DNA of 63,141 nucleotides, the filler included. It is 6 parts of 6 records of this genome, joined end to end, with 100 filler letters (N's around TTAATTAATTAA, not from the genome) between each part and the next. Parts side by side here need not be neighbours in the genome. Positions count along the whole stretch, not along the records: positions 46,013 to 55,756 come from SRR31156797_26816; 5 more parts are not named here. The stretch is one strand, 5' to 3'. Both the position numbers and the translations under genes were made by a program. This document shows, one piece after another, positions 42,401 to 58,505 of the stretch. The notes beneath the pieces were generated by a model, which saw nothing but the letters and a program-made list of their open reading frames with translations, was not told the DNA's origin and made no database searches. Position 1 is the first letter of the stretch. Each line of letters starts with the position of its first letter.

Positions 42401-45400
42401 CTGGCAAATAGTGCGGCAAAAGAGTTAAGTCCTGATGGCAAGATAACAACATGTTATAAACTAACTCATAAATTAGACGAGCCATGCAGTGGTTTAGATG
42501 ACCCATGTCCGTTAGTTGAGATTAAGAGAACAAAAAAACCATATAAAGTTGAACATACGCATTATGATAAAAATAATAATCCGATATTTGTAGAGGTTTC
42601 CGGTTATCCGATATTTGATGAGAATGGTGAATTGATTAGAATGATCGAGTATTCTCAAGATATTACTAAACGTAAACTTGCGGAAAAAGCTATATTGGAA
42701 GCTAAAAATAAAGCTGAAGAGATGCTAAGAGTTCAACAAAAATTAGAGAAAAAATTAAAAGAAAATGTTGAATTTATGCAAACTATGATTGAGCATCTAC
42801 CGGCAGCTGTATTTGCTAAAGATATCGAAAAAGATTATAAATTCGTTCTATGGAATCGTACATGTGAAACTCTGTTTGGAATGCAATCTAAAAATATGTT
42901 AGGTAAAACGGACTATGATATTTTCCCTGCGAATGAAGCGGATTTTTTCCGAAATACAGATGAAGAAGTTGTAAGAAAAGATAAAGTAGAGATTATTCCT
43001 GAGGAAACAGTAACAACAACTGAAGGAGAAAAAATATTAACTACTATTAAAGTAATAGTTAAGGATGAAGGAAAGCCAAAAACTTTGCTAGGCATAACTC
43101 AAGATATAACAGAAAGAAAACGGCAAGAGGAAAAGTTAAGAAAAGCTCTTGAGAGAGTTGAAACTCTGTATAAGGCATCACTAGCCCTGCGTGGAACTAT
43201 GAGTTTAAATGAAATACTGGAAATAATATTAGATAGGTTACAAAGAGTAGTGGCGTTTGATAGTGCCTCGGTACAACAGCTCTATGGTGAGAAATTTAGA
43301 ATAATTTATCTAAAAGGTTTTGAGAATTCTGATGAAGTATTGGGCCTGGAGTTTGATACTCATAGCAATAATCTGGCTAAAAAAGTAGCTGAAATTAAAG
43401 AACCTATGGTAGTTGATGATATCACTCAATATGATGAGTTTATCGATATGTCAAAAGATAGTGATATAAAATCATGGATGGCAATTCCTCTAATATTTAA
43501 TGATGAGATAATCGGGCAATTGACACTGGATTCCAATGATATAGCTTTCTTTGATGAAGAGATGGCGGAACTATGTAACGCCTTCGCTACTCAGGCAGCT
43601 ATTGCCATACGAAATGCACAATATTTTGAGGAATTAAAAATAGCCAAAGAGGAAGCGGAAGCAGCAACAAAAGCAAAAGGTGACTTCCTGGCGAATATGA
43701 GTCACGAGATAAGAACTCCTATGAATGCAATAATAGGTCTTAATAGTTTATTAGAGAGAACAGAATTAAATGCTAAGCAAAAAGATTATGTATCAAAAGT
43801 CAGTGGTGCAGCGAATAATCTGTTAGGGATAATAAACGATATACTTGATTTCAGTAAAATAGAAGCGGGGAAACTTAGTATAGAGAAAATTGACTTTGAC
43901 CTTGATGATGTACTTGATAATATATCAAATGTACTGGGATTAAAAGCTTATGATAAAGGAATAGAGTTCCTGATAATAAAAGAAAATGATGTCCCTGTAA
44001 ATCTAATAGGCGATCCCTTGAGAATGGGGCAGGTGTTATTAAATCTTGCTAATAACTCTATTAAATTTACAGAGCATGGAGAGGTAACGCTAAAAGTCAA
44101 AGTTGAAAAAGATATGAATAATAATAAAGTGTTGCTCCACTTTGCAGTAAAAGATACAGGAATAGGTATGACTCCTGAGCAAATGGAAAGATTGTTTAAG
44201 GCATTTTCGCAGGCAGATACATCTACAACCAGAAAATTTGGAGGTACCGGCCTTGGTTTGACTATCTCCAAGAGATTAGTTGAACTGATGAATGGAGAGA
44301 TAGGAGTAGAGAGTGAGTATGGAATAGGAAGTACTTTCTACTTCACAGCTGAGTTTGAGATAGGAAAAGAGAAGAAAAAGAAACTGAATATTATTCCTGA
44401 ATCGCTTAAAGAGTTAAGTATACTTGTAGTTGATGATAATAACTCAGCAAGAGAAGTATTAGGAAACTATTTGGAGACTTTCTCATATTCTCCTGTATTA
44501 GTCTCATCAGGTGAAGAAGCCATTAGCGAGATCAAGAATAATCATTATGATCTAGTATTTATGGACTGGAAAATGTCGGGCCTAGACGGTATATCGACAT
44601 GGCGGCATATCAAAAAAACTATGGATGAAGAGGAGCTGCCTAAGGCGATATTAGTAACAGCATACGGTAAAGAGGAGATTAATAAACAGGCTAGAGAGGA
44701 AGGTTTCCAAGAGTTATTGAGTAAACCAATATCTCAGTCAGTATTATTTGATTCCATAGCACTTTCTTTTGGAGAAAAAGTAGAAGAAAGAGAGAATAAA
44801 AACTCAGATGATATCTATCCTGAAGGTTTTGACGGTGTAAGAGGGGCGAAAATACTATTAGTAGAGGATAATGAGATAAATCAACAAGTAGCAAAAGAGA
44901 CTCTTGAACTGGAAGGTTTCTGGGTTGATATTGCTGAGAATGGTCAGATAGCCTTTTCAAAAGTTAATGAAAAAGATTATGACTTGGTTTTAATGGATCT
45001 TCAAATGCCTGTACTTGATGGTTATAAAGCTTCAAGAAAAATAAGAGGTCTGTCAAAGTTTGAAGATTTAAAAATTATAGCTCTTAGTGCTGATGCTATG
45101 TCAGGTACAAGACAAAGGGTGCTGGAATCAGGAATGAATGATTTCATCACGAAACCTATTGAAAAACAAGATCTGTTTGAAGCTCTTGCTAAATGGATAG
45201 AAGCAGGAGAGAGAGAGCAAAACCAAGTGGATATTAATAATCAGGAATTAATATCACAGGAAGACATAGAGTCTATTCTGGGAAATGTAGACGTATACGA
45301 CGGTCTGAGAAGAGTGTCAGGAAATGTGGAACTATTCGTAGATATCTTGGTAAGATTTAGCAAAAAAAATCAGAATTTCAATGATGAATTTATGGCGCTA

Positions 45401-45880
45401 ATAGACGGAAATAAGGAAGAAGAGAGCAGAAGAATGATCCATACGCTAAAAGGAGTAGCTGGAAATCTTGGTGCCAAAACACTTCATTATTATGCAAAAG
45501 AGCTGGAGAGTGAGATACAAAAAGATGAGTATGATGATGAGCAAGTAAAAAATATACTCATGAATGTAAATACCGAGCTACTGGGACTTATTCAGCAAAT
45601 AGATGAAGTAGCAAAAAAAGTTGATGAGATTAAGAAGAAAAACAAAAAAGAGAGTGCAGAACTTCCACTTGAAGAGCTGATATCAAAATTCGAAGAGATG
45701 AGAAACTTCATAGAGGAGTATGATACCGAAGCAGAGGAAGTATTTAATGAATTAAAAGAGTATATGGAAAACTATGATTTCTATAATACTTTTGTAGAGC
45801 TAGGTGATAGTATCGTCGAGTATGAATTTGAAAAAGCACTTGAATTATGCGATGAAATAATAGAAGAATTAAAAAAATAG
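39485..45880 (+). CDS. Giant hybrid sensor histidine kinase (2x SBP, Cache-like, PAS, PAS, GAF, HisKA, HATPase, 2x REC, HPt)
   Basis: Two BvgS-like SBP domains, GETY Cache-like region, [21 protein letters not shown], two receivers, HTLKGVAGNLG HPt. Confidence 0.93.
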   Translation: MNRKYLFVFLYIIMQIGFRAFGVIDLTEEEKVWLSNHKLIKVGSDYQAPPFDFMENGKHSGISSEYIERFEKELGVKFEYITGLNWTQTLEKIRSKEIDVVANLAKNSERAEYIDFTLPIASFPTVIFVRNSNDDIVKVEDFKIKKLAVSENYYTHQDLMKNYPDIEPVLVANPDEGLKAVSFGKVDAYLGHLGIGSFQMHKNGITNLKVAFEYSTENSEFYIGIRDDWQILTGILDKVIESVPETEKIEIARRWVPVLSNQTREAEKKELINLTIEEMKWLSQHKKIRLSGDPDWLPHEAFNEKGEFIGIIPEIIKKIEERLPLEFEIIQNKTWTETLNMAKSKEVDVISAINNEARREYLNFTDTYLDYPIVIVTKKDFKNISDTSELRGNKVGLPRNYGYVKRVKDKYTTINFVDVESVSEGLMKVSTGELDAFIANISTSIYMIQEQTLINLKINGKTDLEMSIGLGVRDDWPILRDILNKAIDSISEREINEIKKKWVGNNLEGIITKTEVAGDLAKLAGQFLLIIFLITLMIILLMKLLNVKSLDKLKYGSHRSKNIAIITISTVIAVIIIATWIILERIKSDTKRRARYSIETVLNTTNDAINMWIDNNIKQLEYSASQPKFIELVEELLKVPRDKNVLKKSVELQNIRKYLSENNYKTNSVGFFIIAPDYINIGSRRDANMGDINLISKQRKKLLDDVFAGENRFIPPIRSDVLVLETDEKIPPTMFYATPIKNSSGKVIAVLTQREVPTEYFDRLFRLGRVGNTGETYSFDINGRLISDSRFDNQLRKVGLLADDANSMLEVEILDPGVDLTKGHTPRLAKEDMKLTLMAENAIKGFSGVNIDGYRDYRGVEVAGSWIWNNKYNFGLTTEMDYEEAMAPYTSTRNVVILLVFLTVILTIGLTLISILIGERANQALTKANEELEDRVESRTKELSSANKNLEATLEALTHPFYVIDAKTREIVLANSAAKELSPDGKITTCYKLTHKLDEPCSGLDDPCPLVEIKRTKKPYKVEHTHYDKNNNPIFVEVSGYPIFDENGELIRMIEYSQDITKRKLAEKAILEAKNKAEEMLRVQQKLEKKLKENVEFMQTMIEHLPAAVFAKDIEKDYKFVLWNRTCETLFGMQSKNMLGKTDYDIFPANEADFFRNTDEEVVRKDKVEIIPEETVTTTEGEKILTTIKVIVKDEGKPKTLLGITQDITERKRQEEKLRKALERVETLYKASLALRGTMSLNEILEIILDRLQRVVAFDSASVQQLYGEKFRIIYLKGFENSDEVLGLEFDTHSNNLAKKVAEIKEPMVVDDITQYDEFIDMSKDSDIKSWMAIPLIFNDEIIGQLTLDSNDIAFFDEEMAELCNAFATQAAIAIRNAQYFEELKIAKEEAEAATKAKGDFLANMSHEIRTPMNAIIGLNSLLERTELNAKQKDYVSKVSGAANNLLGIINDILDFSKIEAGKLSIEKIDFDLDDVLDNISNVLGLKAYDKGIEFLIIKENDVPVNLIGDPLRMGQVLLNLANNSIKFTEHGEVTLKVKVEKDMNNNKVLLHFAVKDTGIGMTPEQMERLFKAFSQADTSTTRKFGGTGLGLTISKRLVELMNGEIGVESEYGIGSTFYFTAEFEIGKEKKKKLNIIPESLKELSILVVDDNNSAREVLGNYLETFSYSPVLVSSGEEAISEIKNNHYDLVFMDWKMSGLDGISTWRHIKKTMDEEELPKAILVTAYGKEEINKQAREEGFQELLSKPISQSVLFDSIALSFGEKVEERENKNSDDIYPEGFDGVRGAKILLVEDNEINQQVAKETLELEGFWVDIAENGQIAFSKVNEKDYDLVLMDLQMPVLDGYKASRKIRGLSKFEDLKIIALSADAMSGTRQRVLESGMNDFITKPIEKQDLFEALAKWIEAGEREQNQVDINNQELISQEDIESILGNVDVYDGLRRVSGNVELFVDILVRFSKKNQNFNDEFMALIDGNKEEESRRMIHTLKGVAGNLGAKTLHYYAKELESEIQKDEYDDEQVKNILMNVNTELLGLIQQIDEVAKKVDEIKKKNKKESAELPLEELISKFEEMRNFIEEYDTEAEEVFNELKEYMENYDFYNTFVELGDSIVEYEFEKALELCDEIIEELKK

Positions 45881-46012: not shown

Positions 46013-46965
46013 GTTACAGCATGGGGGCCGGCGTTTTGCTGGGAGTAAGTGAAATCACCTACATCGCTGCGGTTTGTGATATTGCCGTTATCAGTGTAAT
46101 CGGTGTTACGGTAGTCGGTGCTGCTCAGGCTGTCGGCCACAAGGCGGTTGAGTTCGTCGTAGCGGAAATCCTCAAAAGCATAAAATTTGTGTGATTCCCT
46201 GGAGAGCAGGTTTCCTCGCAAAGTATCAAAGTCGTAAACAAATTCTTCCAGAGCTAAAGGATTATTTTTTTGCAAGGTCTTAAAAAGTGATGGGAATCCA
46301 TAGGTATCATACTCACGAATAACTTCATAATCAGAGCCTATATCGTAATTAGTAATCTGCCCCCGTGCATTGTATGCCGTGCTGTCCCATACCGTTGCGT
46401 TGTCCTGGGTTTTCACCTCGCTAAGATAGCCATAACTGTTATATACATTGCGTATCCCAAAACCGGTGTGCCAGTTTTCGTACTCCAGACGGCCATAGCT
46501 GTCGTAGGTGTAGGTTTTGGTAAAGCTTTCGCTGCCGGTGGTTTCGGTTTGTGAGGTGATGCGGCCCAGCGCGTCGTAGGCATAGCTTTGCGAGGTGCCG
46601 TTGTTGAGGGTAACGGAAGTGAGTGCCCCCAGATTGCCGGCCACTGAGTCTTCGTAGGTCCAGGCTGTGAGCTCACCATAAGGCCCGCTGCGTTGGTACA
46701 TGCGCCCCAACACATCATACAACATGGTGTAGGTGTTGCCCCGGGCATCGGTTTGGCTGGTAAGCTCACCAAAGGCGTTGTAAGAACTAACGATCTGCCC
46801 GGCATCAGGATCGTTCAAGGTGTCACGGTTGCCATGAATATCATAGTGCATGCTGATGGTGGAATTGTTGGCAGTGATGCTTTTGGGCAGCCCGGAGCTG
46901 TAATAATCGTAGGTGATGGTGCCACCATTGTCGGTAACGGATATGGGCTCGCCAAAAGCATTCAT
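46013..46965 (-). CDS. RHS/YD-repeat protein fragment (3'-truncated; starts mid-repeat)
   Basis: Repeated YD..GR motifs (YDIHGN, DPDAG, YNAFGEL, YDVLGR, YDALGR, YDSYGR, YDELNRL, PHAV). Confidence 0.88.
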
Positions 46966-47099: not shown

Positions 47100-47624
47100 T
47101 CAGGGTGTGAGTTTTATCATGCTGGCTTTCCAGTCCTCAGGGGTTTCATCCAGCGTGTAGATTTCTATTCCAGGCTGACCGGCTTCAGGGTCCGCAACTG
47201 CAGTGCCTGCCAAAGCTTCAGCCTGGAGGGTGATATCCACAAATTCGGTCTTTAACCGCCACATAGCACCCGTGGCTGGATCCACTATCAGTATCCCGAT
47301 GAGGCCGCCAAAAAGGATGTTTCCGAAGTACCAGCCATCGAGTGCAAAGTCAACCGGGACCGTTCGGGTTTGGTAGCCTTCCATTTTGATGGTTACAAGG
47401 TAGGAAGCTTTGGCAAAAAAGCCCGCCGATGATTTCAGCATCAACTGGGCCGGTGTATTGCCCCTGTAAATTTCCATTCCTTTTTTATTTACTACGGTAA
47501 CATCGGCACCTTTCGGCTGGCTGTTGACTGTAAATGGGTAATTGGTTTTGCTCACGATGGATGCACATCCACCGGCGATGATCATTGCCGTCAGTAACAT
47601 GACGATTGATAGATTCCTTTTCAT
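47100..47624 (-). CDS. Lipoprotein with PEGA-like domain
   Basis: Lipobox AGGC-ASIVS, SQP.GA, TPA, GWYFGNILFGGLIG.LIVDPATGAMW; ATG at 47624. Confidence 0.82.
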   Translation of the reverse strand: MKRNLSIVMLLTAMIIAGGCASIVSKTNYPFTVNSQPKGADVTVVNKKGMEIYRGNTPAQLMLKSSAGFFAKASYLVTIKMEGYQTRTVPVDFALDGWYFGNILFGGLIGILIVDPATGAMWRLKTEFVDITLQAEALAGTAVADPEAGQPGIEIYTLDETPEDWKASMIKLTP

Positions 47625-47695
47625 TTGGTTTCGGTTTTTGATTTCGTATTCAATATTCAATTTTGGTTTCTGCAGATTTTATTAGCCAATAACCT

Positions 47696-47736: not shown

Positions 47737-47929
47737 TTTTTTATAAAAAATTTTAAGAAAACGCCGCAAAAGATTTCCAATCAAGGACATAAGGGTTTTT
47801 AGGTTGTTAACAAATGTTAACAAACCTTAATTTCCTGTTGCAATAGAATGTTTGACGGATCATTTAAATAGAGCACAGCGTGAATTGTTACTTTTGCTTT
47901 CGCAGGTATTATTAATCCTCTTCAAGGAG

Positions 47930-48499
47930 ATGAAAGCAAAAGACAAAAAACGCATCGAGAAACTGAGAAATCGTGACAACTACGAAACAGCGAAGGTTTT
48001 GGATAAAAACCGAAAAGTATTTGCGGCATTTGTTGAATCCTTAAATGGAAACCGTTTTGAAGTAGACGACATGCTGCAGGAAGGAATTGAAGCATTGCTT
48101 CATAAAATTGACGATATAGAAAATGAATCTAATATTAAAAATCTTGATGCGTATTTTTTTACGATATGTAAAAATATCCTGTACAAAAGAATGCAACAAG
48201 ATGGATACGAAATAAGCTACGAAAATGAAACACTTGAATCCTTATTCATTCCTGTTGAGGATACCACGGAACGGGACAAAATAGAAAATGAAAACCTGAA
48301 ATTATACAAAAAGATATTCAATGACCTGACTAAAGAGTGTCAGGATTTACTTTTTCAGAGGTATATTATCAAGAAAGGAACAGATGTGTCAGACCAGTTG
48401 ATAATCAATTTTAATGCATCAAGAAGAACCAAACTAAGCAGGTGCAGGCAAGAGGCTCTTAAGAGGTTGAAAAAATTTAGAAGAACATGGAAGAAATAA
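47930..48499 (+). CDS. ECF-type RNA polymerase sigma factor (divergent)
   Basis: DDMLQEG region 2, YFFTICKN, region 4 L..ECQDLL...Y; overlaps the anti-sigma-like gene; AAGGAG RBS at ATG 47930. Confidence 0.78.
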   Translation: MKAKDKKRIEKLRNRDNYETAKVLDKNRKVFAAFVESLNGNRFEVDDMLQEGIEALLHKIDDIENESNIKNLDAYFFTICKNILYKRMQQDGYEISYENETLESLFIPVEDTTERDKIENENLKLYKKIFNDLTKECQDLLFQRYIIKKGTDVSDQLIINFNASRRTKLSRCRQEALKRLKKFRRTWKK

Positions 48500-49230
48500 C
48501 TTTAGATAAAATCATAGACTACGTAAAAGGGGCTTTGGACAAAGAAAGCACAAAGCTAATTGAAGAAAGGATTAAGTATGATCCTGAATTTGCACAGGAA
48601 GTGGACATGTACAGAGGTTTCCAGAAATTACTGGGAAATGATGAGTTCCTCCATGAACACTTTTCTTCTAAAGTTGCTCCCCCTTCCCTTAACAAACGTG
48701 TAGTTGAAAAAATAAAGCATCTGAAGTATTATGCCATCGCAGCTGCTGCGGTCATCGCATTATTGCTAACTTACTTCACCCTTCTCCGTGACAAACAAAG
48801 TTACACGCCAGATGCTCTTTTTGCAGCATACTTTAAGGAATACAACCAGATTGTTGAGATGCGTGATGGTATTGACTCTACGGGTATGTTCAACATAGGT
48901 ATCCAACAATACAAAGAAGGGGACTGGGAGAGTGCCATCCATTCGTTAAACCAGTCAAAACAAAACTTTCAGCTCACAGCATCCTTTTACATTGGCATGT
49001 GCTACCTTGAGCTTAAGGAGTACGAAAAAGCCCGGAAGCAATTAATCGAAGTCGTTAAGCATCCCAATGAATTCAGGCAGGAAGCCCAATGGTACCTGGC
49101 TTTGACTTTTTTGGCCGAGCACAATATTGAAAGATGCAGCAAAATCCTTAATGAAATTTCATCCCAACCAGATCATCAGCATAAAGCTGGAGCTGACAGG
49201 CTTTTGGTTGATCTGGAAAAGATTGAATGA
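48487..49230 (+). CDS. Putative anti-sigma factor with TM helix and periplasmic TPR domain
   Basis: N-terminal IDYVKGAL......EER...DPEF anti-sigma-like domain; TM AIAAAAVIALLL; TPRs FYIGMCYL, EAQWYLAL. Confidence 0.78.
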   Translation: MEEITLDKIIDYVKGALDKESTKLIEERIKYDPEFAQEVDMYRGFQKLLGNDEFLHEHFSSKVAPPSLNKRVVEKIKHLKYYAIAAAAVIALLLTYFTLLRDKQSYTPDALFAAYFKEYNQIVEMRDGIDSTGMFNIGIQQYKEGDWESAIHSLNQSKQNFQLTASFYIGMCYLELKEYEKARKQLIEVVKHPNEFRQEAQWYLALTFLAEHNIERCSKILNEISSQPDHQHKAGADRLLVDLEKIE

Positions 49231-49456
49231 TCTTTTTAAAGGACAATCATAAATATTGTGCACCTAATCTATTATGGCTTCAACAAGGAAATTTTTTTCT
49301 ATTAAAGGTTCAATGTATTCTAATACCTCAACCAGATTTTAATATACAGTTTTTCCCATATGTTAAATTTATTCACAATGTCCGGAAAGCATTATTAACT
49401 GATTATCTGCATTAAACATGATTTTCTTAAAAAAAAATGTTAAAAAAAGCGCTCCC

Positions 49457-49500
49457 AATGTTCACAAACCTCTACATCCCGGCTCAACTATAATGAAGGC
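49457..49500 (+). promoter_or_regulatory. Conserved ECF-type promoter motif, copy 2
   Basis: AATGTTCACAAA-N12-GGCTCAA-N8-AAGGC upstream of lipoprotein 49689. Confidence 0.6.
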
Positions 49501-49688
49501 ACCAGTGCAAAGTATTGGCGCTAATAAGGGAGAAAACCGAAAAGCCTGAAAAGAGTAGGTTTAACAAAAAAAGGAGGCATCATGACTTTTGACAGTTCTT
49601 AAACCGTGAAAAGCTTTTTAATCACAGAAAACAAAGTTTTATTCCGGCAACTCAATTTTTATTATTATTTTCAAACCAAAAAATTAAA

Positions 49689-50615
49689 ATGAAAAATTCA
49701 ATTTTAACATTACTGTTAATCGCAGTTATTTTTGCTGGTTGCAAAAAAGAAGACTCAACAGGAACTCCCGAAACCCAAAAGGTATCAAGTATCGAACAAC
49801 GCATCCTGAATTTTGAACAAAAACTACAATCTGCTCAAAAAGACGGTACTACCTACGCCATCGACAGTGCCGAGTGGTATGTTGAAGCGTTGCTCAACTA
49901 CAACACCGTTACTCCGGGCATCGAATGTGCAGGGATCTCGGCTGACACTGCCTGGACCAGCCTTCCCATCCCCGCCAATGGGGAATACACGCTTACCCAG
50001 CTCGAATCGGTTTACAGCCAACTGCTGAGCCAGGTACAGCAAAACCTACCCGAAGGCACCATTGTATTTGCGGTGGATTTATACCATTACCAGGTAGAAA
50101 CCGTAATGGTATTTTCTACAAACACAGCATATGCAACACCAACAAATCCTATGTTCAAATCGCTCAACGACACAACGGGATATTGGTACTGGGGTGGCAA
50201 TGCCGGAATGTGTGGACCGGATTCAGGGCTGTATGTCGGGATGGATGCTGCAGATATTTTAACCGCACAACTCACTCATACCTGGACAAATATCTGGACT
50301 GACCTTGAAACATTTACAGTTAATCCTGCATATCCCGGTTTTAACTATTATGACCCGAATTTTCCTTTCACAAGCTATCCGGAACTTGACTCAACAAGAA
50401 TTTTCAAAGCTTCAGGTGATCAATCTGTACTGCAATTTTGTCTTACTCCATCAATGATGGCCTATTACAGTTCGAACAACGGCATAGGGTACATAATAAA
50501 TGATCTGAAACCAGATAGAAAAAAGTATTCACATTGCGTCATCGAACCTGGTGCATGGGATGACCCTGTTGTATTTCATGAAGGCGATTTCACTTATGGT
50601 GTTCCACTAGATTAG
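49689..50615 (+). CDS. Hypothetical lipoprotein
   Basis: Bacteroidota lipobox IFAGC-KKED. Confidence 0.8.
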   Translation: MKNSILTLLLIAVIFAGCKKEDSTGTPETQKVSSIEQRILNFEQKLQSAQKDGTTYAIDSAEWYVEALLNYNTVTPGIECAGISADTAWTSLPIPANGEYTLTQLESVYSQLLSQVQQNLPEGTIVFAVDLYHYQVETVMVFSTNTAYATPTNPMFKSLNDTTGYWYWGGNAGMCGPDSGLYVGMDAADILTAQLTHTWTNIWTDLETFTVNPAYPGFNYYDPNFPFTSYPELDSTRIFKASGDQSVLQFCLTPSMMAYYSSNNGIGYIINDLKPDRKKYSHCVIEPGAWDDPVVFHEGDFTYGVPLD

Positions 50616-50678
50616 CAAAGAATAAGTCCAGGGATCAATATAATCCCTGGACATTTTCATACAACTAAAACTAAGAAT

Positions 50679-52181
50679 ATGAGGAAAATAATTATTTCTC
50701 TAATAATTTTCGCATCATTATGCCAATCAGTTTCTTCAATTGCCCAAGGAAGTTTTATTTTTCAGCCTCCGGCAACGGCTGAATATGACAACCCTGAAGA
50801 TATGATAATCAAACCAAATGGAGATATAATTTATATATACTCATCCAGCATAATTAGCAAGAGTGACATATATACAAATAGTATATATGAAATTGATAAT
50901 GAAGGAAATCTTGTGAATAATGTAGCTCTGGTAGATTCAAATTATAAACACCTTGAATTTAAACATTGCTATTATCTGGATGATACATTGTATCTTTTTG
51001 GAGAGGGCCGTACGTTTGATGCAGAGCCGGAGACCTATATTTTTATGCTTAAACTTGATGATCAGCTCAATGTTACCGATAACATTTTAATTGATCCAGG
51101 ATTAAAAAATGTTGCTGGCTTATATCATGGAAAGTTAAAGTTTGTAAACGATAAGTTTTATTTCCTTTCCTCGGCTCAGGATCAATCATCCAACGTGGAT
51201 CCTCCTTTTTCTGCAGTTATTTCGAAACAAGGGACACTCCTGGAATTTGGCATTGAAACAGAAATTTATAGTCCGATATTCGGTCAATTTGACTTTAATG
51301 TAAATGCCGGAGAAAATGGATATCGTGTATTTGCTTCCGCTTTTGGAAATACAGGTGGACTTCTTGGTTTAATATGCTTTTTTTCAGATGACTTTCAACT
51401 AAAAGAATATTCTATTTTACCTTTTCAAATGGACTCCTACTTCACTTATCAACCTTTGAATGATTCAATATATTTTCTCTCAGGTGAATGGGATGATAAT
51501 ACCCCTCCGGCAATAAAGCATGCAGGAATACTTAAGCTGAAAAATGACACAACCGTAATTGACAGTTTCCTGCATACCACATTTCCGGATTCATCGGCCT
51601 GCCCAGCATACCGGCATTCTTTGGAGCTATTGCCAGATGGCAATCTGATTTTTTGTTTTACGGATAACATTTCGGTCGAGATATTCCCTGAGCTGTTCCC
51701 AACAAAAATTAATCTGATGAAGCTCACACCTGATTTTGAAGTGATCTGGCACAGATACATCGGAGATGGTGAAAATTGCTGGAATGCATATGTAATGCGT
51801 GTTAATGACGACGGAGTGATTGCCATCCATGCAGCATTTAATACAGAGGCTACTGCATGGCAGAGGGATGTACTTTTTATCAAAACCACTCCCGATGGTC
51901 TGATCACCGGAACCCATGACGATTTCCCGGGAATCAGCTCCACCGAAACCATACTGTATCCCAACCCGGCAAAGGATTTCGCGATAGTGGAACTCAGCAT
52001 GGCTTACCAGGCTGCAACGCTTGTGATCAGTAACATCAGCGGGCAGGAAGTCTTCAGGGCCAACCTTACCGGCAACAAACAACAAGTGGATATTTCAGGG
52101 GTTCCGGCAGGGAATTATGTTTATCGGATTTTTAATGAGAAAGGATTGGATGAAAACGGAAAGCTGGTGGTGGGGAGGTAG
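50679..52181 (+). CDS. T9SS (type A CTD) secreted protein
   Basis: Signal peptide; C-terminal ILYPNPA..ISGQ..G.Y..GKLVV sorting domain. Confidence 0.88.
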   Translation: MRKIIISLIIFASLCQSVSSIAQGSFIFQPPATAEYDNPEDMIIKPNGDIIYIYSSSIISKSDIYTNSIYEIDNEGNLVNNVALVDSNYKHLEFKHCYYLDDTLYLFGEGRTFDAEPETYIFMLKLDDQLNVTDNILIDPGLKNVAGLYHGKLKFVNDKFYFLSSAQDQSSNVDPPFSAVISKQGTLLEFGIETEIYSPIFGQFDFNVNAGENGYRVFASAFGNTGGLLGLICFFSDDFQLKEYSILPFQMDSYFTYQPLNDSIYFLSGEWDDNTPPAIKHAGILKLKNDTTVIDSFLHTTFPDSSACPAYRHSLELLPDGNLIFCFTDNISVEIFPELFPTKINLMKLTPDFEVIWHRYIGDGENCWNAYVMRVNDDGVIAIHAAFNTEATAWQRDVLFIKTTPDGLITGTHDDFPGISSTETILYPNPAKDFAIVELSMAYQAATLVISNISGQEVFRANLTGNKQQVDISGVPAGNYVYRIFNEKGLDENGKLVVGR

Positions 52182-52419
52182 CGCAGAGCGCAAGGAGCCG
52201 GAAAGTTGAAATATTGAATAGTGAAGTGATAAAATTGCGGATAGTGAGACTTTCTCCCGAGGGGCTGCTTTGGCAGATCGTCTGAAGGACATCTAAACGT
52301 CAAGAACAGAGCTCTTAGAGCAGAGCGCAAAGAGCAGAAACATTGAAGTGTTGAATACTCAATCAGCAGGTATATAATTGCCAGGTAAGTACAACTCAAA
52401 CGGTGAATTAAATGCACAT

Positions 52420-55365
52420 TTAATTTCGGAGTATATCCGAAATACGATTCTTCCACTTTCGTACAGCAACGATAACCAACAGGGCAAAGAGCGCTGCTAG
52501 TATCAGTGTGACTTTTAAGTGAACTGTATGGTTTGATGACGTTGCAATCGCAGATTGATCACCTACCACTGTCAGTCCGGCCCAATATTTCGGGTGGGTT
52601 TTTATGGATGTAACTGTTTTTAAGAAATCCTGCTTGGCTCGTTGGAGGGCTACATTTTTAGGTAAGCCTTCTTTCAATCCTTCGTAAAATGAGGTCATGA
52701 TCTGGTTTGCCGAAGCATCATCAAGCGAAAAAAGTGAATAACCAACACTCCTGCTGCCGGCATATTCAAATGCCCAGCCCAGGCTAATCACACCTTCACC
52801 ATCCAACAGTTGCCCACTTCCTGATTTGCAGGCACTCAGCATCACCAAATCAGCAGGAATGTCCATACAACAGATTTCCGACGTTAGCAACGGATCATAT
52901 ACGTTTTCGGAAGTACCGGAAGGCAATACCAAACCTGTGTTCATGAGCCCGCTGGTGTCGGTTTTGGTGTGGGTAGCAAAATGGATAACCGAAGCATTTT
53001 GCAGGTAGGGGCTAAGATTCGACTTTTGAGCTCTTTTCCCTGTCAGCAATTCTCCATCAAAAAGATCAGTAAGGTATTCTGCTTCTGACCGGGCATGTTC
53101 TATTTTTGTAAACCCTTGTCGTATTTGCTCTATTTTCCCTTTAAATACGGGCGCAATAGCAACAAACCCTTCTGCCGGGTTATTTTCCTGATACGAATTT
53201 GAAGGCAAACCATACAAGGAGTGATAATAACTAATTGGGAATTCATGCAGCAGGTAAGGCAATGACTTGTAGAACGCCTTTACGCCAGGATTGTATGTCA
53301 GCAGGATTTCAAAGGGTAGCAGCACCAGTTCCTGGTCCGGTATTATCACAAGCTCTTCAATACCAGTAAACATGCTGGTATCTCCTACCAATATTTCTGT
53401 AAGCCGGGAAGCAATATCCTGGTAGGTATGTTTCTCAATAATCCGATCACTAACCGGATTACAAAAATCGATCAGATCATTTACCCGGCTTCTGATGTTT
53501 TGGGCTTGCTGGAATCTTTGCCATATAATTGTATCCGGGCTGATTTTGTGTACATGTAATACTGTATCTTCCAGGTAATAGTTGAACAACAACTGCCCAT
53601 CCTTGACGCTGCCGCTAACCTCATGCAGCGACAATTCATTGAACTCCCGGTTGATGCTTGCCGGATATTTTTGAAAAATAATGTTGCGCAAGGAATCTTG
53701 CTGTAATATCAAGTTGAATAGTTGCTGTTGTAAATCCGCTAAAACCAGGGGGTCGTTATTGGCCTCCAGCTGCACTTTTTTAATGTGCAGCCTGTTGATG
53801 TTATTGCTCAGCAGGGTATTTAATCGGGCTAAACTATCGGGCAGTTGTGTGGCCTGATTTCTTTGCATCATCATACTTTTCACCAAAAGGTATTTCCCGG
53901 TTTCGGAAAAATGCAGGGCTTTTTCCAGGTAGTAGATATCATGGTTTTCCAGGTATAGTTCCCATGCAGCATCCATCCCTGCCAGCATATACCTTCGGAT
54001 CTCCTTTTTCAGTGCTGTCATCCGATCCTGCATAAAGGTTTTGTCTCGCAGCCCGGCTTCCACGCAATGGCTGTAATAGTTGCCGTTGGCTATAATCAAC
54101 CGGTTTATGGTTTTTAATGAATCCTGCTCTAATCTTTGGCGTTTTATGGCCATTAAAGATTCCAGCTTTCGGGCTATGATCTCAGGCAACCGTTTATCGG
54201 CATTAAATACATCTTGTGGGTTGGTGGCATAATCCAGCGTATCTACATCTTTAGAAGTGCAATACAATGCCCTTTGAAAATAGTACAGCGATGAGTCGTA
54301 TTTTTGAAGTTTGTGGTAGATCCTTCCCAAAACCATATTAATATAGGTCAATTCGGGATGATATGATCCATATTGTGACACGTACAGTGAAAATCCCAGA
54401 AAATATTTTCTTAAAGCAGCTTTATAATTACGTTCCTTATTTTCCAGATAATTGCCGAAATTGTCCAGGTATGATGCATAAGCGAGGGTGTCGATATTGC
54501 TGACTGATAAACCGTTATAATACTGTTCATCCAGTGACAATTCTCCGATCTGAGAATAAGCGTAGGCCAGCACATTGTTTATGTAGGGTTCAAATGAATT
54601 CTGACGGCTTTGCATATGGTGAAGTGCATTATTAAAATATACAACTACTTGCTGCCAGTCCCTCATAGCATAATAAACCCGACCTATTCCATAATTGAAA
54701 TTAAACTGCCACAACTTTTGGTTAGTTTTAATTTCTTTTAGCCAGTTTAAACCTTCATTACCATATAATAAGGCCTTTTCAAAATCTGCCTTATCCTGAT
54801 AAAATCGCATGAGATTAAGGTAATCATGAAGTATAGATTCATTTTTTCCTGTGTCAATTTCCCTTTCAAGTCTCAGTGATTTTAGATAGTACAATTCAGC
54901 ACTATCATTTTCCTCCAGTTCTGAATAGTATTTACCAAATGAATAATAAATTCTTGATTCATGTATTGAATTAACTGAGGAGTTAAGTTTCATAGCATAT
55001 TCTAAATAGCCAAAGGCACTGTCATAGCAATTCTTATTTCGCCATGCATTCGCTAAATTGATTGATATATCAATGAGTTCATTCGTGTCATTTAAGGAAA
55101 GCCTTGTGTAAATTCGTTTGTATATTCTTAATGAGCTGTCAAAATTATGAGTGTAATGGTAACAATTACCCTTTCTTTTTCGAAGTTCAAAATCCAAATC
55201 TTTTATCTCTATTTCATTCCAAAACCTTAAGGCATTGCTATAATTCTTTTGATCATAGTAATAATTGAAGCTATCCACTGCAGCAAAATCCTGTGACCTG
55301 GATGATTGTGCACCAATCACCAAGGTAAAAAACACGGCCAATATGTATTTGATTTTGAGCGTCAT
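52420..55365 (-). CDS. Exported TPR-CHAT (caspase-like) protease with C-terminal TM anchor
   Basis: Signal peptide, multiple TPRs, IIPD..L..LPFEIL, catalytic HFATH and LSACKSG, AL..AK, HP.YWA, C-terminal TM. Confidence 0.92.
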   Translation of the reverse strand: MTLKIKYILAVFFTLVIGAQSSRSQDFAAVDSFNYYYDQKNYSNALRFWNEIEIKDLDFELRKRKGNCYHYTHNFDSSLRIYKRIYTRLSLNDTNELIDISINLANAWRNKNCYDSAFGYLEYAMKLNSSVNSIHESRIYYSFGKYYSELEENDSAELYYLKSLRLEREIDTGKNESILHDYLNLMRFYQDKADFEKALLYGNEGLNWLKEIKTNQKLWQFNFNYGIGRVYYAMRDWQQVVVYFNNALHHMQSRQNSFEPYINNVLAYAYSQIGELSLDEQYYNGLSVSNIDTLAYASYLDNFGNYLENKERNYKAALRKYFLGFSLYVSQYGSYHPELTYINMVLGRIYHKLQKYDSSLYYFQRALYCTSKDVDTLDYATNPQDVFNADKRLPEIIARKLESLMAIKRQRLEQDSLKTINRLIIANGNYYSHCVEAGLRDKTFMQDRMTALKKEIRRYMLAGMDAAWELYLENHDIYYLEKALHFSETGKYLLVKSMMMQRNQATQLPDSLARLNTLLSNNINRLHIKKVQLEANNDPLVLADLQQQLFNLILQQDSLRNIIFQKYPASINREFNELSLHEVSGSVKDGQLLFNYYLEDTVLHVHKISPDTIIWQRFQQAQNIRSRVNDLIDFCNPVSDRIIEKHTYQDIASRLTEILVGDTSMFTGIEELVIIPDQELVLLPFEILLTYNPGVKAFYKSLPYLLHEFPISYYHSLYGLPSNSYQENNPAEGFVAIAPVFKGKIEQIRQGFTKIEHARSEAEYLTDLFDGELLTGKRAQKSNLSPYLQNASVIHFATHTKTDTSGLMNTGLVLPSGTSENVYDPLLTSEICCMDIPADLVMLSACKSGSGQLLDGEGVISLGWAFEYAGSRSVGYSLFSLDDASANQIMTSFYEGLKEGLPKNVALQRAKQDFLKTVTSIKTHPKYWAGLTVVGDQSAIATSSNHTVHLKVTLILAALFALLVIVAVRKWKNRISDILRN

Positions 55366-55417
55366 TGCTTTTTCAAAGGTATTTCTTTTCCTAAAAACAA
55401 AAAATTAAATGTTAAAA

Positions 55418-55459
55418 AATGTTCACAAAACGGGGTTTGTGACTCAATATAGTAAAGGC
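55418..55459 (+). promoter_or_regulatory. Conserved ECF-type promoter motif, copy 3
   Basis: AATGTTCACAAA-N11-GACTCAA-N7-AAGGC upstream of the GG-leader peptide. Confidence 0.6.
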
Positions 55460-55555
55460 GCCTTTAACCCGGGTTAAACATTCCAAAAACCACTTTGGAA
55501 AATGATAGACTCAGGTTACGAAAACTCATTTATTAATTTAAAAGAATTTTAAGTC

Positions 55556-55693
55556 ATGAAAGAGAATGCTTTGATTTACAAACCCGAAGAACTGGATGAA
55601 GATTTAATGAAAAAACTAATTGGTGGGGATGGAAATGATCCTCCACCACCAGATGATCCTCCACCACCAGATGATCCAGATAAAAATGGTTGA
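55556..55693 (+). CDS. Double-glycine leader precursor peptide, Pro/Asp-rich core (not in ORF track)
   Basis: MKENALIYKPEELDEDLMKKLIGG-DGNDPPPPDDPPPPDDPDKNG; followed 6 nt later by a C39 peptidase start. Confidence 0.85.
   Translation: MKENALIYKPEELDEDLMKKLIGGDGNDPPPPDDPPPPDDPDKNG
55635..55677 (+). repeat. 18-bp coding tandem repeat
   Basis: ATGATCCTCCACCACCAG x2 plus partial ATGATCC. Confidence 0.9.
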
Positions 55694-55699
55694 TCGGTT

Positions 55700-55756
55700 A
55701 TGATAAGTAATCACCTCCAACACGATAAAAAAGACTGCGGCCCTGCCTGTCTGCAA
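55700..55756 (+). CDS. C39 peptidase domain N-terminus, probably a peptidase-containing ABC transporter (truncated)
   Basis: MISNHLQHDKKDCGPACLQ matches the Q.D..DCG.ACL catalytic motif; only 19 codons visible. Confidence 0.82.
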
Positions 55757-55856: not shown

Positions 55857-55894
55857 AATCGTTTTGACTTAAAAAAATATATAAGGAGTCGGGT

Positions 55895-58468
55895 ATGAAA
55901 AAAAAGCTATCAGTATTAAAATTATTAATTTTGTTTACATTGTTATATAGTAGCAGTATGGGAACGAAGGAATTAAATGTTGCTGTTTTTCCTTTTTCAC
56001 CTCTTATTTCTATGAACGAAAATAATGAAGCAGAAGGATTTTTTATTGATTTAATTGAGGAAATAGCCAAAAAAGAGGATTGGGAGATTAACTATATTAA
56101 TGGAGGTTGGGTCGATAGTTTAGACGGAATAAAGCAAAATAAAGTCAATCTTGCAACTTCAGTTGCTTATACCAAAGAGAGAGATGAATTTATGGATTAC
56201 AGCTCTGAGAGTGCATTTACTGTCTGGAGCATGGTATATGCAAGTAAAAATAGTGAAGTTGAAAATGTATTAGATTTAAGCGGGAAAAAAATAGCTTTAA
56301 TGAAAAATGATTTTAATGCAAAAAATTTCAGGGAGATGGCTGATAAATTTAATATTGATTATGAATTTGTTGAGCTTAAATCCTTTAAAGAGATTTTTGA
56401 AAAAATTAATAGAGGTGAAGTAGACGCAGGGGTTGTTCCAAATACTTTTGGATATATCAATGAGAAAAAATACGATGTTTTTCGAACACCTATTTTATTT
56501 AATCCTTTTGATATTTATTTTACGGTTAAAGATGGAGCCAATCCTGAAATTTTAACTACGTTTTCCTATTACTTACACAACTGGAAAAAAGATAAAAACT
56601 CTTTTTATTATAAAAAATTCAAAGTTTGGTTTTCAGGTGATATAAACAATCAAAATGAAGTTCCAAAAAACGTAATTTATGCTATTGCACTGATTATCAC
56701 TTTTCTGATTTTATCTTTAGTTTTGAATTGGATACTAAAGAACAAAGTAAATAATGCAACTATTGAATTAGTTGCTCTCAATAATCAATTAAAAAACAAA
56801 ATTGAAGAAGCTCTATCCGCTAAGCAAAAAGCTGAAAAGGCAAATCAAGCCAAAAGCTTATTTCTGGCTAATATGAGTCATGAGATTAGAACCCCTATGA
56901 ATGGAATCATAGGAATGATTGAACTGCTTGAAACTACAAAACTTGATAAAGAACAGAGTGAGTATCTAAAAAATATTGATTGGTCAGCTACTAATCTAAT
57001 TTCAATTATTAATGATATTTTGGATCTCTCTAAAATAGAAGCAGGAAAAATTGATCTGGAAAAATCAGAGTTTAATATACTTGAATCTGTTGAAGAGATA
57101 GTTGATAGTTTTGCAATTAGTGCGCATAAAAAGAAACTGGAATTAGTCCACTATGTGGATAAAAATATACCTGAATACTTAATCGGAGATATTGGTAAAA
57201 TCAAACAGGTTTTAATAAATCTTATTGGAAATTCTCTTAAATTTACTGACTCTGGTAATATTCTCATTGAAGTAATCGCAAGTTCATCTATGATTAATAG
57301 AGTTCAACTAAAATTTATCGTTACTGATACCGGTATAGGTATATCCAATGAGCAGATTAATGCTATCTTTGAACCTTTTATGCAGGGGGATTTATCTTAT
57401 AACAAAAAATATCAGGGTACGGGACTTGGTTTAGCTATATCGAAGCGCTTATGTGAACTTATGGGAGGGGAGATCTCTATTGAGAGTGAAGTAGGTAGTG
57501 GATCAAAGATTAGTTTTACTTGTAATGTGGAGGTCTCTACAAATATTTTAAATCAAAACGAAATAGAGAAAATTGATCTTAATATGTCAAAATTAAGAGT
57601 TTTATTAATTGATGATAATAAATTAAATAGAGATATTGTTACTAAGATGCTTATTGATGAAGATATCGATGTTACTACCGCCGACTCTGGTGAAAGTGCA
57701 TTTAAAATTTTGGAGAATAACAAAACATTTAATCTTATTTTATTAGATGTGAATATGCCGGAGATGGATGGCTTTGAAGTTGCTGAAAAATTAAAAAAAC
57801 ATAATCATGATATTGATACAGCTATTATGCTTTTTACTTCTATTGATATTAGAGATCAGTTAAATAGAATCTCCGAGCTGGGAATATCTTCATATCTTAT
57901 GAAACCGGTTAAGAAAACTCAGTTACTAAAAGGTATTAAAACATCAATTAATACTTTTCATAAAAAACATATAGAAAAGAATTTAATGGATATTACAAAA
58001 TTAGATGGCAGTCATAGAATTGATATTGATCTGCTTAAATCAATTCATAAAAATAATCATATCTATAATAATAACTCAAACCAAACTAATGAACTGTTAA
58101 AGAAAAAAATACTATTAGTTGAAGATAACAAAGTTAATCGATTAGCTGTTTCAAATGTTCTTAAAAAAGAGGGGTATGAAGTCTTTATTGGCAAAAACGG
58201 ACTTGAAGCTGTTGAGATGTTAGGCGGACTTGAAGTTGATCTCATATTGATGGATATTCAGATGCCGATAATGGACGGTTATGAAGCTACCAGATTGATA
58301 AGAGAAAGGGAACGTCAAAACTCATTAAATGAAACTCCGATCATTGCATTCACAGCATATGCTCTGGAGAGTGATAAGGAGAAAATACTCAAATCAGGAA
58401 TCAATAATTACTTAGTAAAACCTACTAGAAGTGAGCACTTAATTAAAAAAATTCAATCTTATATTTAA
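55895..58468 (+). CDS. Hybrid sensor histidine kinase (SBP, HisKA, HATPase, 2x REC)
   Basis: SBP domain, [23 protein letters not shown], two receivers. Confidence 0.93.
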
Positions 58469-58505
58469 TTTTCAAAAGGTTTTACAAGAAATTTGGAGGT
58501 TTACA

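Follow-up and report, generated by a model that had tools for sequence, protein, structure and literature searches.

An ECF sigma factor, an anti-sigma-like membrane protein and an exported TPR-CHAT protease form a widespread trio with a predicted proteolytic switch

The window analyzed here is a 63,141-nucleotide (nt) stretch of DNA, one contig of which carries genes for an extracytoplasmic function (ECF)-type sigma factor, an anti-sigma-like membrane protein containing tetratricopeptide repeats (TPRs) and a TPR-CHAT cysteine protease. We found that these genes belong to a widespread trio, and we propose that they probably form an ECF switch operated by regulated proteolysis, which resembles DdvS/DdvA of Myxococcus xanthus but is split into two membrane proteins, with CHAT as the site-1 protease. 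All parts listed in the initial annotation were present (Table 1). The sigma gene overlaps the anti-sigma-like gene by 13 nt; the TPR-CHAT protein has an intact dyad (H799 and C846), an N-terminal hydrophobic segment (residues 1–19) and a C-terminal segment (residues 950–968); and a double-glycine (GG) leader peptide is encoded divergently from CHAT, directly followed by the start of a C39 exporter gene, of which 19 codons are available.

Linkage among these genes was surveyed in 151 genomes of the order Bacteroidales; CHAT was matched in 84 of them, anti-sigma in 70 and C39 in 67. For the linkage counts we kept 88 of the 124 anti-sigma matches, those covering most of the profile; of 212 CHAT matches the 150 listed were used, and C39 was represented by the 100 strongest of its 109 matches. 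Among the matches listed, 44 of 88 anti-sigma genes lay within 10 kilobases (kb) of a CHAT gene; genomes with an anti-sigma match contained 41 of the C39 genes, 13 of them no more than 12 kb from an anti-sigma gene. Eighty regions covering most of the 88 anti-sigma matches were then fetched. Within 10 kb, a sigma gene was found in 71, CHAT in 50, a GG peptide in 15 and C39 in 13; many of these loci reach contig ends, so that absences are soft. A phylum-wide sample of Bacteroidota gave sigma in 20 and CHAT in 15 of the first 20 loci, and in 38 and 30 of a further 40 (58 and 45 of 60 in total), with neither peptide nor C39 in either set. The sigma gene lay within 300 nt of the anti-sigma gene in 67 of the 80 Bacteroidales and 20 of 20 phylum-wide loci. 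The conserved neighborhood that the initial annotation had anticipated was thus borne out for sigma, anti-sigma and CHAT, whereas the GG peptide was confined to a minority of Bacteroidales loci.

A single-sequence scan of genome contigs with the anti-sigma-like protein recovered one close relative (91% identity), in an uncultured Lentimicrobiaceae assembly; the source organism is therefore probably a member of Bacteroidales. The ratio of nonsynonymous to synonymous substitution rates relative to the close relative L001 was 0.20 for sigma, 0.12 for anti-sigma and 0.31 for the first 320 codons of CHAT, and all three genes are under purifying selection.

The sigma factor has ECF architecture, with regions 2 and 4 only and a length of approximately 190 amino acids (aa). 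It matched TIGR02937 (sigma70-ECF; E 3.8e-10) with 39.6 bits, slightly below the cut-off of 42.9 that its relatives exceed (47.9–67.6 bits), and Pfam Sigma70_r2 with E 1.7e-4. The open reading frame (ORF) at the +1 position encodes a protein with a single hydrophobic segment (residues 79–97), C-terminal TPRs and an N-terminal helical domain placed in the cytoplasm, the layout of a membrane anti-sigma factor. Its residues 10–100 gave a weak match to the NCBIfam anti-sigma family NF052375 (E 6.7e-4, far under the cut-off), and the match to PRK13920 was also weak. Fold searches with a model of the protein returned TPR proteins only, for residues 126–247, and scarcely probed the N-terminal domain; PDB sequence searches returned generic TPRs or nothing, and a query with one relative returned nothing. 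No conserved Cys or His was present in the N-terminal domain among 141 aligned rows. The anti-sigma profile matched 24,604 clusters at E 0.001 and 11,442 at 1e-10, and many of the weaker matches may be generic TPRs. Some homologues of ~500 aa (P0026, P0030, P0040 and similar; L091, 7668–9185) have several tandem N-terminal helical domains followed by one transmembrane (TM) and TPR part, and could hold several sigma molecules.

The CHAT domain was assigned with E 2.2e-48 (PF12770; 165.6 bits against a cut-off of 24). H799 and C846 sit after strands 3 and 4, as in clan CD, and proteolytic activity is predicted; both residues were kept in 68 of 68 CHAT proteins (those of the first 100 loci plus the window). 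Fold matches were to Csx29 (E 7e-15) and separase, at ~12% identity, and to DdvA (E 2e-11). Hydrophobic segments were found at the N-terminus in 59 and at the C-terminus in 59 of 63 long CHAT proteins, and that at the C-terminus of the window protein is followed by a basic tail. Application of the positive-inside rule places the CHAT domain and the anti-sigma TPRs in the periplasm near the inner membrane, a computed topology that supports the extracytoplasmic location originally suggested for the protease. Two anti-sigma-linked CHAT proteins (L100, 8220–12305; L111, 7718–10795) have no C-terminal membrane anchor, and in L175 (7580–10896) the CHAT matches fall in two opposite-strand ORFs, one with the catalytic half and TM segment and the other with the N-terminal part, possibly as a result of inversion or misassembly.

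To gain insight into the relation between protease and anti-sigma-like protein, we predicted the complex of CHAT residues 92–942 with anti-sigma residues 101–247, without alignments, in three runs and with three controls. The complex score was 0.61 in the three runs versus 0.05 for the best control; the runs shared at least 80% of contacts, and the predicted local distance difference test value of the partner was at least 84. Fifty-one of 78 solved complexes attained the score mark applied, as did 2 of 108 mismatched pairs. In the model, anti-sigma residues 121–127 contact H799, 844–845 and 880–884 of CHAT, with R126 adjoining D883; TPR residues 160–164, 192–199 and 228–231 also make contacts, those of 193–199 being with CHAT 643–645 and 920–926. 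The prediction supports direct binding of CHAT to the anti-sigma-like protein. R126 lies in an EMRDG sequence 29 residues past the TM segment, in a linker that is otherwise variable, and is conserved in 79% of 141 homologues. A linker Arg was present in 70 of 103 loci, and the next residue was Ser or Gly in 75 of 103. The initial annotation had suggested clipping near EMRDG, and R126, conserved and modeled in the active site, marks the predicted cut site there.

A further residue, E761, is positioned on the helix following the first strand of the protease domain. As described in the available part of PMC4357240, the same helix carries the acid that binds, or is proposed to bind, a basic P1 residue in MALT1 (D365), RgpB (D163) and TbMCA2 (D95), and a Leu-specific MARTX peptidase has a hydrophobic residue at that element (PMC4357240 and PMC4626109, in the sections available). 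E761 was Glu in 58 of 58 Arg-linker, 3 of 3 Lys-linker and 0 of 6 Met-linker loci, one unclassified locus being left out. In loci fetched after this pattern had been noticed, Glu was found in 26 of 27 with a basic linker residue and 0 of 5 with Met. Overall, Glu occupied the position in 86 of 87 loci whose linker has no Met and in 0 of 11 that have one, and D883 was replaced by Glu in 9 of the 11 Met loci versus 2 of the 87 others. E761 is a predicted specificity switch, a single S1 residue that may set whether the linker is cut at Arg or Met.

A two-block family motif, approximately GTTACCTT-N14-17-ATTAATAG, was learned de novo from 16 peptide upstream regions, with the window excluded. Given that the de novo scores exceeded those of shuffled controls only modestly (144 versus 126–135; 143 versus 115–123 in another run), enrichment upstream of sigma genes is the real test of the motif. 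Scores of at least 9 were obtained for 18 of 62 sigma genes, mostly 30–47 nt from the start, versus 25 of 969 other ORFs; the corresponding counts were 1 of 61 for CHAT, 1 of 99 for anti-sigma and 1 of 15 for C39 genes. The motif fits an autoregulatory ECF promoter that would also drive the peptide gene. The window has a site of this type 43 nt upstream of sigma, so that cross-talk from a paralogous sigma factor is possible; the copy in L057 scores 10.1. A variant, ATGTTMACAAA-N14-17-CAA, occurs three times in the 63 kb, upstream of the sigma, lipoprotein and peptide genes (P1 to P3 in Table 1), and in 0 of 100 shuffles. Its sigma-side and peptide-side copies are retained in genome G001 as the only two matches there, and in L137 a similar element precedes both the sigma and the peptide gene. 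The divergent region 4 of the window sigma factor may explain the variant. This shared promoter-like motif is consistent with the sigma-type control of secreted proteins and peptide envisaged in the initial annotation.

On the basis of these data we propose the following sequence of events. The sigma factor would be held by the cytoplasmic bundle of the anti-sigma-like protein, whose periplasmic TPRs are modeled as docking on the CHAT domain of the C-terminally anchored protease with the linker in the active site. A signal received at the large TPR solenoid of CHAT would activate the His-Cys dyad, by analogy with Csx29 and DdvA, and the protease would then cut after R126, with E761 and D883 as acidic S1 residues, as the model and the covariation suggest. 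A site-2 protease would next free the sigma factor, as with DdvA and RseP, and the freed sigma factor would transcribe its own operon, the lipoprotein/type IX secretion system (T9SS) pair and the genes for the GG peptide and C39 exporter, all of which are marked by the promoter motif. The peptide would in this way be under sigma control; the simplest reading is that it is an output, although it could also feed back on the protease. Because the proposal names a substrate and predicts both the scissile bond (R126-D127) and the residue that switches specificity (E761), besides supplying reporter promoters, the function of an exported bacterial caspase-like protease becomes directly testable, phylum-wide homologues included.

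Several observations weigh against this proposal or against parts of its support. Cleavage of the anti-sigma-like protein by CHAT is itself a computed proposal, and the anti-sigma identity derives from gene position, topology and a weak profile match, with sigma binding presumed. The linker Arg was about as common in loci without a nearby CHAT gene (22 of 35) as in those with one (48 of 68). Seven of 44 blindly picked gene neighbors also reached the complex-score mark, the solved Csx29-Csx30 and separase-substrate complexes may have guided the model, and E761 was not among its confident interface residues. The Met-linker loci fall in at most three lineages and could have a single origin; with a quick tree of CHAT sequences, the Met/E761 covariation amounted to three changes on the best tree; well-supported branches yielded one independent pair, too few to reach significance. 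Locus L179, with a Lys linker and no Glu, is an exception, and the linker classes permitted a shift of one or two columns. As to the promoters, the three-site variant pattern was drawn up after the sites had been seen, the window peptide site scored only 3.4 on the family matrix, and the two variant matches in G001 equal the number in the reversed control.

The peptide/exporter cassette is a Bacteroidales add-on that is accessory to the trio. The core of the window peptide is DGNDPPPPDDPPPPDDPDKNG, which contains no Cys, Ser or Thr; the peptide had no NCBIfam match, and its relatives gave only weak leader matches. In the family, 16 loci, one of them in the window, encode 17 GG-leader peptides, to which L137 adds another; the cores are short, mostly acidic and proline-rich. 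Two tandem peptide genes in L037 (5489–5904) have near-identical leaders and different core starts. Fourteen of 18 residues at the C39 start, which itself matched Pfam C39 with E 0.035, are identical to the full C39-ATP-binding cassette (ABC) transporter of the related locus L137. The last 30 bases of the contig are also covered by a 33-nt record whose depth is 2.4 times as high, which suggests that the C39 gene ends at an assembly break in a repeat rather than at a real truncation; the DNA 3′ of the C39 start is missing, position 55857 onward being a different contig with 28.6% GC. In L137 and the overlapping L138, whose CHAT is 39% identical, the genes are HlyD, C39-ABC, peptide, CHAT, anti-sigma, sigma, T9SS protein and lipoprotein. 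The GG leader and adjacent C39 gene fit GG/C39 export, judged from 19 codons in the window and from a full exporter with HlyD in L137. The HlyD-like adaptor after the C39 exporter in L049 (15229–15741) has 171 aa versus ~430 aa elsewhere, and might deliver the peptide to the periplasm only. Between CHAT and anti-sigma, L137 (6716–7470) also has the divergent CHAT/peptide promoter region twice more, together with short remnants of the start of CHAT. Peptide-linked CHAT proteins were shorter than the others (median 981 versus 1085 aa; p 0.02, uncorrected for kinship).

What the peptide does can be read in two main ways, the remaining chance going to an unrelated role. We give a little less than an even chance to the view that it exerts negative feedback or is an output for another receiver, such as a sensor-less kinase, and that what the trio itself responds to is an external cue, for example envelope damage or phage, as has been proposed for DdvA. 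The occurrence of the trio without a peptide in most loci agrees with this view, as do a HisKA-type kinase (~290 aa) encoded directly 3′ of anti-sigma in 6 of the 80 loci and the free variation of the other cargo, which includes a lanthipeptide cluster in L041; DdvA, moreover, controls a defense island according to the accessible sections of PMC11506125. A mere output would not, however, need the fixed head-to-head placement of peptide and CHAT genes, PADLOC gave no match for the five window proteins, and no kinase was seen on the contig, which ends at 55756. The kinases in question are sensor-less HisKA/HATPase proteins of 250–305 aa (L040, L041, L042, L053, L060 and L095); the copy in L044 (4821–5699) had no Pfam match and is maybe degenerate. 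The region 6978–19900 of L041 contains a trio with GG peptide, a second anti-sigma gene and a short kinase gene, and then genes for a lanthipeptide precursor, LanC, LanB and a C39 exporter.

The other view, peptide autoinduction, extends the site-1 protease model and is not an alternative to its cleavage step. The exported core would return to the periplasm, bind the TPR solenoid of CHAT and activate cleavage, giving a positive, quorum-like loop. We regard it as possible but less likely than not, and tentatively suggest a peptide-pheromone circuit of Gram-negative Bacteroidales with a periplasmic caspase-like protease as receptor on a phylum-wide protease/anti-sigma chassis. In its favor, of 13 loci having both genes, 12 place peptide and CHAT head-to-head, as do the window and L137, and the peptide gene carries a sigma-type promoter motif; a C39 match was found in all 14 genomes with a peptide locus versus 67 of 151 overall; the cores vary and, being acidic and proline-rich, differ from cationic bacteriocins; and the nearest CHAT proteins (window, L137 and L039; support 94) share similar Gly-Asp-Pro-rich peptides. 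The joint decay of peptide locus and CHAT in G001 is one case in the same direction: in L140 (G001:C358, 135–3517) an IS66 fragment directly follows an intact peptide promoter, with no peptide gene there, and the CHAT gene of this draft assembly is broken by a stop and frameshifts. On the other hand, the peptide was absent within 10 kb in 37 of 50 CHAT-linked Bacteroidales loci and in all 60 phylum-wide loci, 45 of them CHAT-linked. Twenty genomes with anti-sigma beside CHAT had no strong C39 match (among the 100 strongest of 109), peptide presence changed nine times on the CHAT tree, and TPR charge did not differ between peptide-linked and other CHAT proteins (p 0.28), with no peptide-specific TPR signature. 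In relatives the exporter is followed by HlyD-type adaptors, so that export probably takes the peptide out of the cell and its return would require re-import, on which the size limit of porins bears. The suggestion that the peptide is the ligand of CHAT was accordingly not supported as a general rule.

Two further explanations bear on the cleavage step itself. It is quite improbable that the anti-sigma-like protein serves the protease as an inhibitor or partner of securin type, its Arg linker occupying the active site uncut while the real substrates are other envelope proteins. A bound Arg can inhibit without being cut, as in the RgpB prodomain (PMC4357240, in the part available), and the model gives binding rather than catalysis; the position and topology of the protein are nevertheless those of an anti-sigma factor, and both the Ser or Gly after the Arg and the 29-residue distance from the TM segment fit a site-1 cut, like the DdvA truncations degraded by RseP. 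Mere clustering or co-regulation, with CHAT a regulon member that has no direct action on the anti-sigma-like protein, is more improbable still: in 30 of the 80 Bacteroidales anti-sigma loci (many at contig ends) the stretch fetched contains no CHAT, and the position of CHAT varies, but the linker sits in the active site of the complex model, linker and S1 residues change together, and the sigma-type motif is not enriched 5′ of CHAT genes.

The site-1 protease model thus remains our preferred reading of the trio, around which the window shows other genes. The lipoprotein had no Pfam or NCBIfam family and only Atlas leads below 0.9, and the same was true of the body of the T9SS protein, which is weakly propeller-like as a lead. 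The lipoprotein/T9SS pair was rejected as a fixed part of the module, as a contig of one run connects the ends of anti-sigma and CHAT with no such pair between them; another run covers the pair but not the sigma/anti-sigma/CHAT module. The contig (46013–55756) has 9,744 nt and 40.6% GC; one public run contains it unbroken and without a difference, and may be where it derives from. No Cas genes, including any Cas7-11-type ORF, were found on the contig. Upstream of a PEGA-like lipoprotein gene (47100–47660) it contains an RHS-repeat ORF (46013–46965, minus strand) that crosses the contig end and whose start is possibly an internal fragment. The window as a whole consists of six unrelated-looking contigs with N-linkers (28.6%–51.4% GC); two hybrid histidine kinases (39485–45880 and 55895–62915) lie on other contigs and so are not neighbors of the locus.

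Table 1. Positions of genes, key codons and promoter-like sites of the locus, counted along the window.
Feature	Position	Strand	Remarks
Promoter-like site P1, ATGTTAACAAA-N16-CAA, putative autoregulatory promoter	47814..47843	+	87 nt 5′ of sigma ATG; also present in the close relative L001
Second, family-consensus-type site, GTTACTTT-N16-ATTAATCC	47887..47918	+	43 nt 5′ of sigma ATG; score 7.0
ECF-type sigma factor, 189 aa, divergent region 4	47930..48499	+	Hidden Markov model matches
Anti-sigma-like membrane protein, 247 aa: N-terminal helical bundle, TM 79–97, R126 linker, predicted periplasmic TPRs	48487..49230	+	R126 codon 48862–48864
Promoter-like site P2	49458..49487	+	5′ of lipoprotein/T9SS pair
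Lipoprotein-like protein, 308 aa, accessory, putatively regulated cargo	49689..50615	+	27% homologue beside module in L138; missing from this place in a relative
Hairpin between lipoprotein and T9SS genes	50626..50652	.	Terminator-like on both strands
T9SS type A-tailed secreted protein, 500 aa, accessory, putatively regulated cargo	50679..52181	+	42% homologue in L137
Exported TPR-CHAT cysteine protease (predicted), 981 aa: signal segment, TPRs, CHAT, C-terminal TM 950–968	52420..55365	-	
CHAT D883	52717–52719	-	Beside R126 in complex model
CHAT C846	52828–52830	-	Dyad Cys
CHAT H799	52969–52971	-	Dyad His
CHAT E761	53083–53085	-	Alpha-1 / S1 position
Promoter-like site P3	55419..55447	+	CHAT/peptide divergent gap, 5′ of peptide gene; identical in G001
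Double-glycine leader peptide, 45 aa; 21-aa acidic, proline-rich core	55556..55693	+	No Arg or Cys in core
C39 peptidase-ABC exporter, first 19 codons	55700..55756	+	Ended by contig end

Site-1 proteolysis of the periplasmic part of an anti-sigma factor, followed by sigma release, is known from RseA/DegS/RseP and MucA/AlgW. The site-1 enzyme of RseA/DegS/RseP-type systems is an HtrA-type serine protease, whereas here we propose a dedicated, locus-encoded clan CD cysteine protease. In the Gram-positive pheromone circuit ComC/ComAB/ComDE, an unmodified double-glycine peptide is exported by a C39-ABC transporter, expressed from a promoter of its own circuit and read out by a histidine kinase, and RNPP proteins are TPR peptide receptors with a cytoplasmic regulator as read-out. 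The locus resembles these circuits in its GG peptide, which may be unmodified, its C39-ABC exporter, a peptide promoter putatively driven by the circuit and a TPR solenoid as a possible receptor, but the signal would be read out by a protease in the periplasm of a Gram-negative cell, with reception hypothetical. If the peptide is the ligand, the locus would represent quorum sensing by a peptide with proteolysis as its read-out; our literature search found no such system for this phylum. That search, which left subscription papers mostly outside, covered the ECF classification supplement in part and may have missed a group, returned no published description of the trio or of its peptide version, and no published substrate or role for Bacteroidales TPR-CHAT proteins or the anti-sigma-like family.

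Other caspase/ECF/TPR neighborhoods are mentioned in the available part of PMC8195603, none of them matching the sigma/anti-sigma/CHAT trio. In ECF54 (PMC7826278, sections available), an ECF sigma factor likewise has a conserved TPR-CHAT neighbor, suggested to be a regulator; that group is, however, 100% Actinobacteria, has no anti-sigma factor and is accompanied by subtilase and carboxypeptidase-regulatory neighbors. The initial annotation had taken Csx29/Csx30 as its precedent, and the logic of a protease that cuts an anti-sigma factor is indeed shared, whereas the closest precedent is DdvS/DdvA instead. According to the accessible portion of PMC10028731, Csx29 of the type III-E Csx29/Csx30/CASP-sigma system is a separate TPR-CHAT protein that binds a sigma inhibitor via its CHAT domain, cuts it in a flexible loop and is activated allosterically through its TPRs, and it is the best fold match to the CHAT protein studied here. 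Unlike the latter, which has a signal segment and TM anchor and is only 12% identical, Csx29 is cytoplasmic, activated by RNA via Cas7-11 and without membrane anchors.

DdvS/DdvA, as far as the available text of PMC11506125 describes it, combines an ECF sigma factor with an adjoining single-pass anti-sigma factor and a periplasmic TPR-CHAT His-Cys dyad at a juxtamembrane linker, with a proposed site-1 cut followed by RseP. In DdvA, however, protease and anti-sigma factor are one chain, for which autoproteolysis in trans is proposed, whereas here they are two opposite-strand genes, separate in 95 of 95 linked loci. DdvA also has a CHCC zinc domain, in contrast to the absence of conserved zinc ligands and the TPR docking domain that the anti-sigma-like protein has of its own, and its regulon comprises a CBASS antiphage system and clustered regularly interspaced short palindromic repeats rather than secreted proteins and a GG peptide. 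The trio thus works like DdvS/DdvA but, with its separate protease and missing zinc domain, is not a member of that system.

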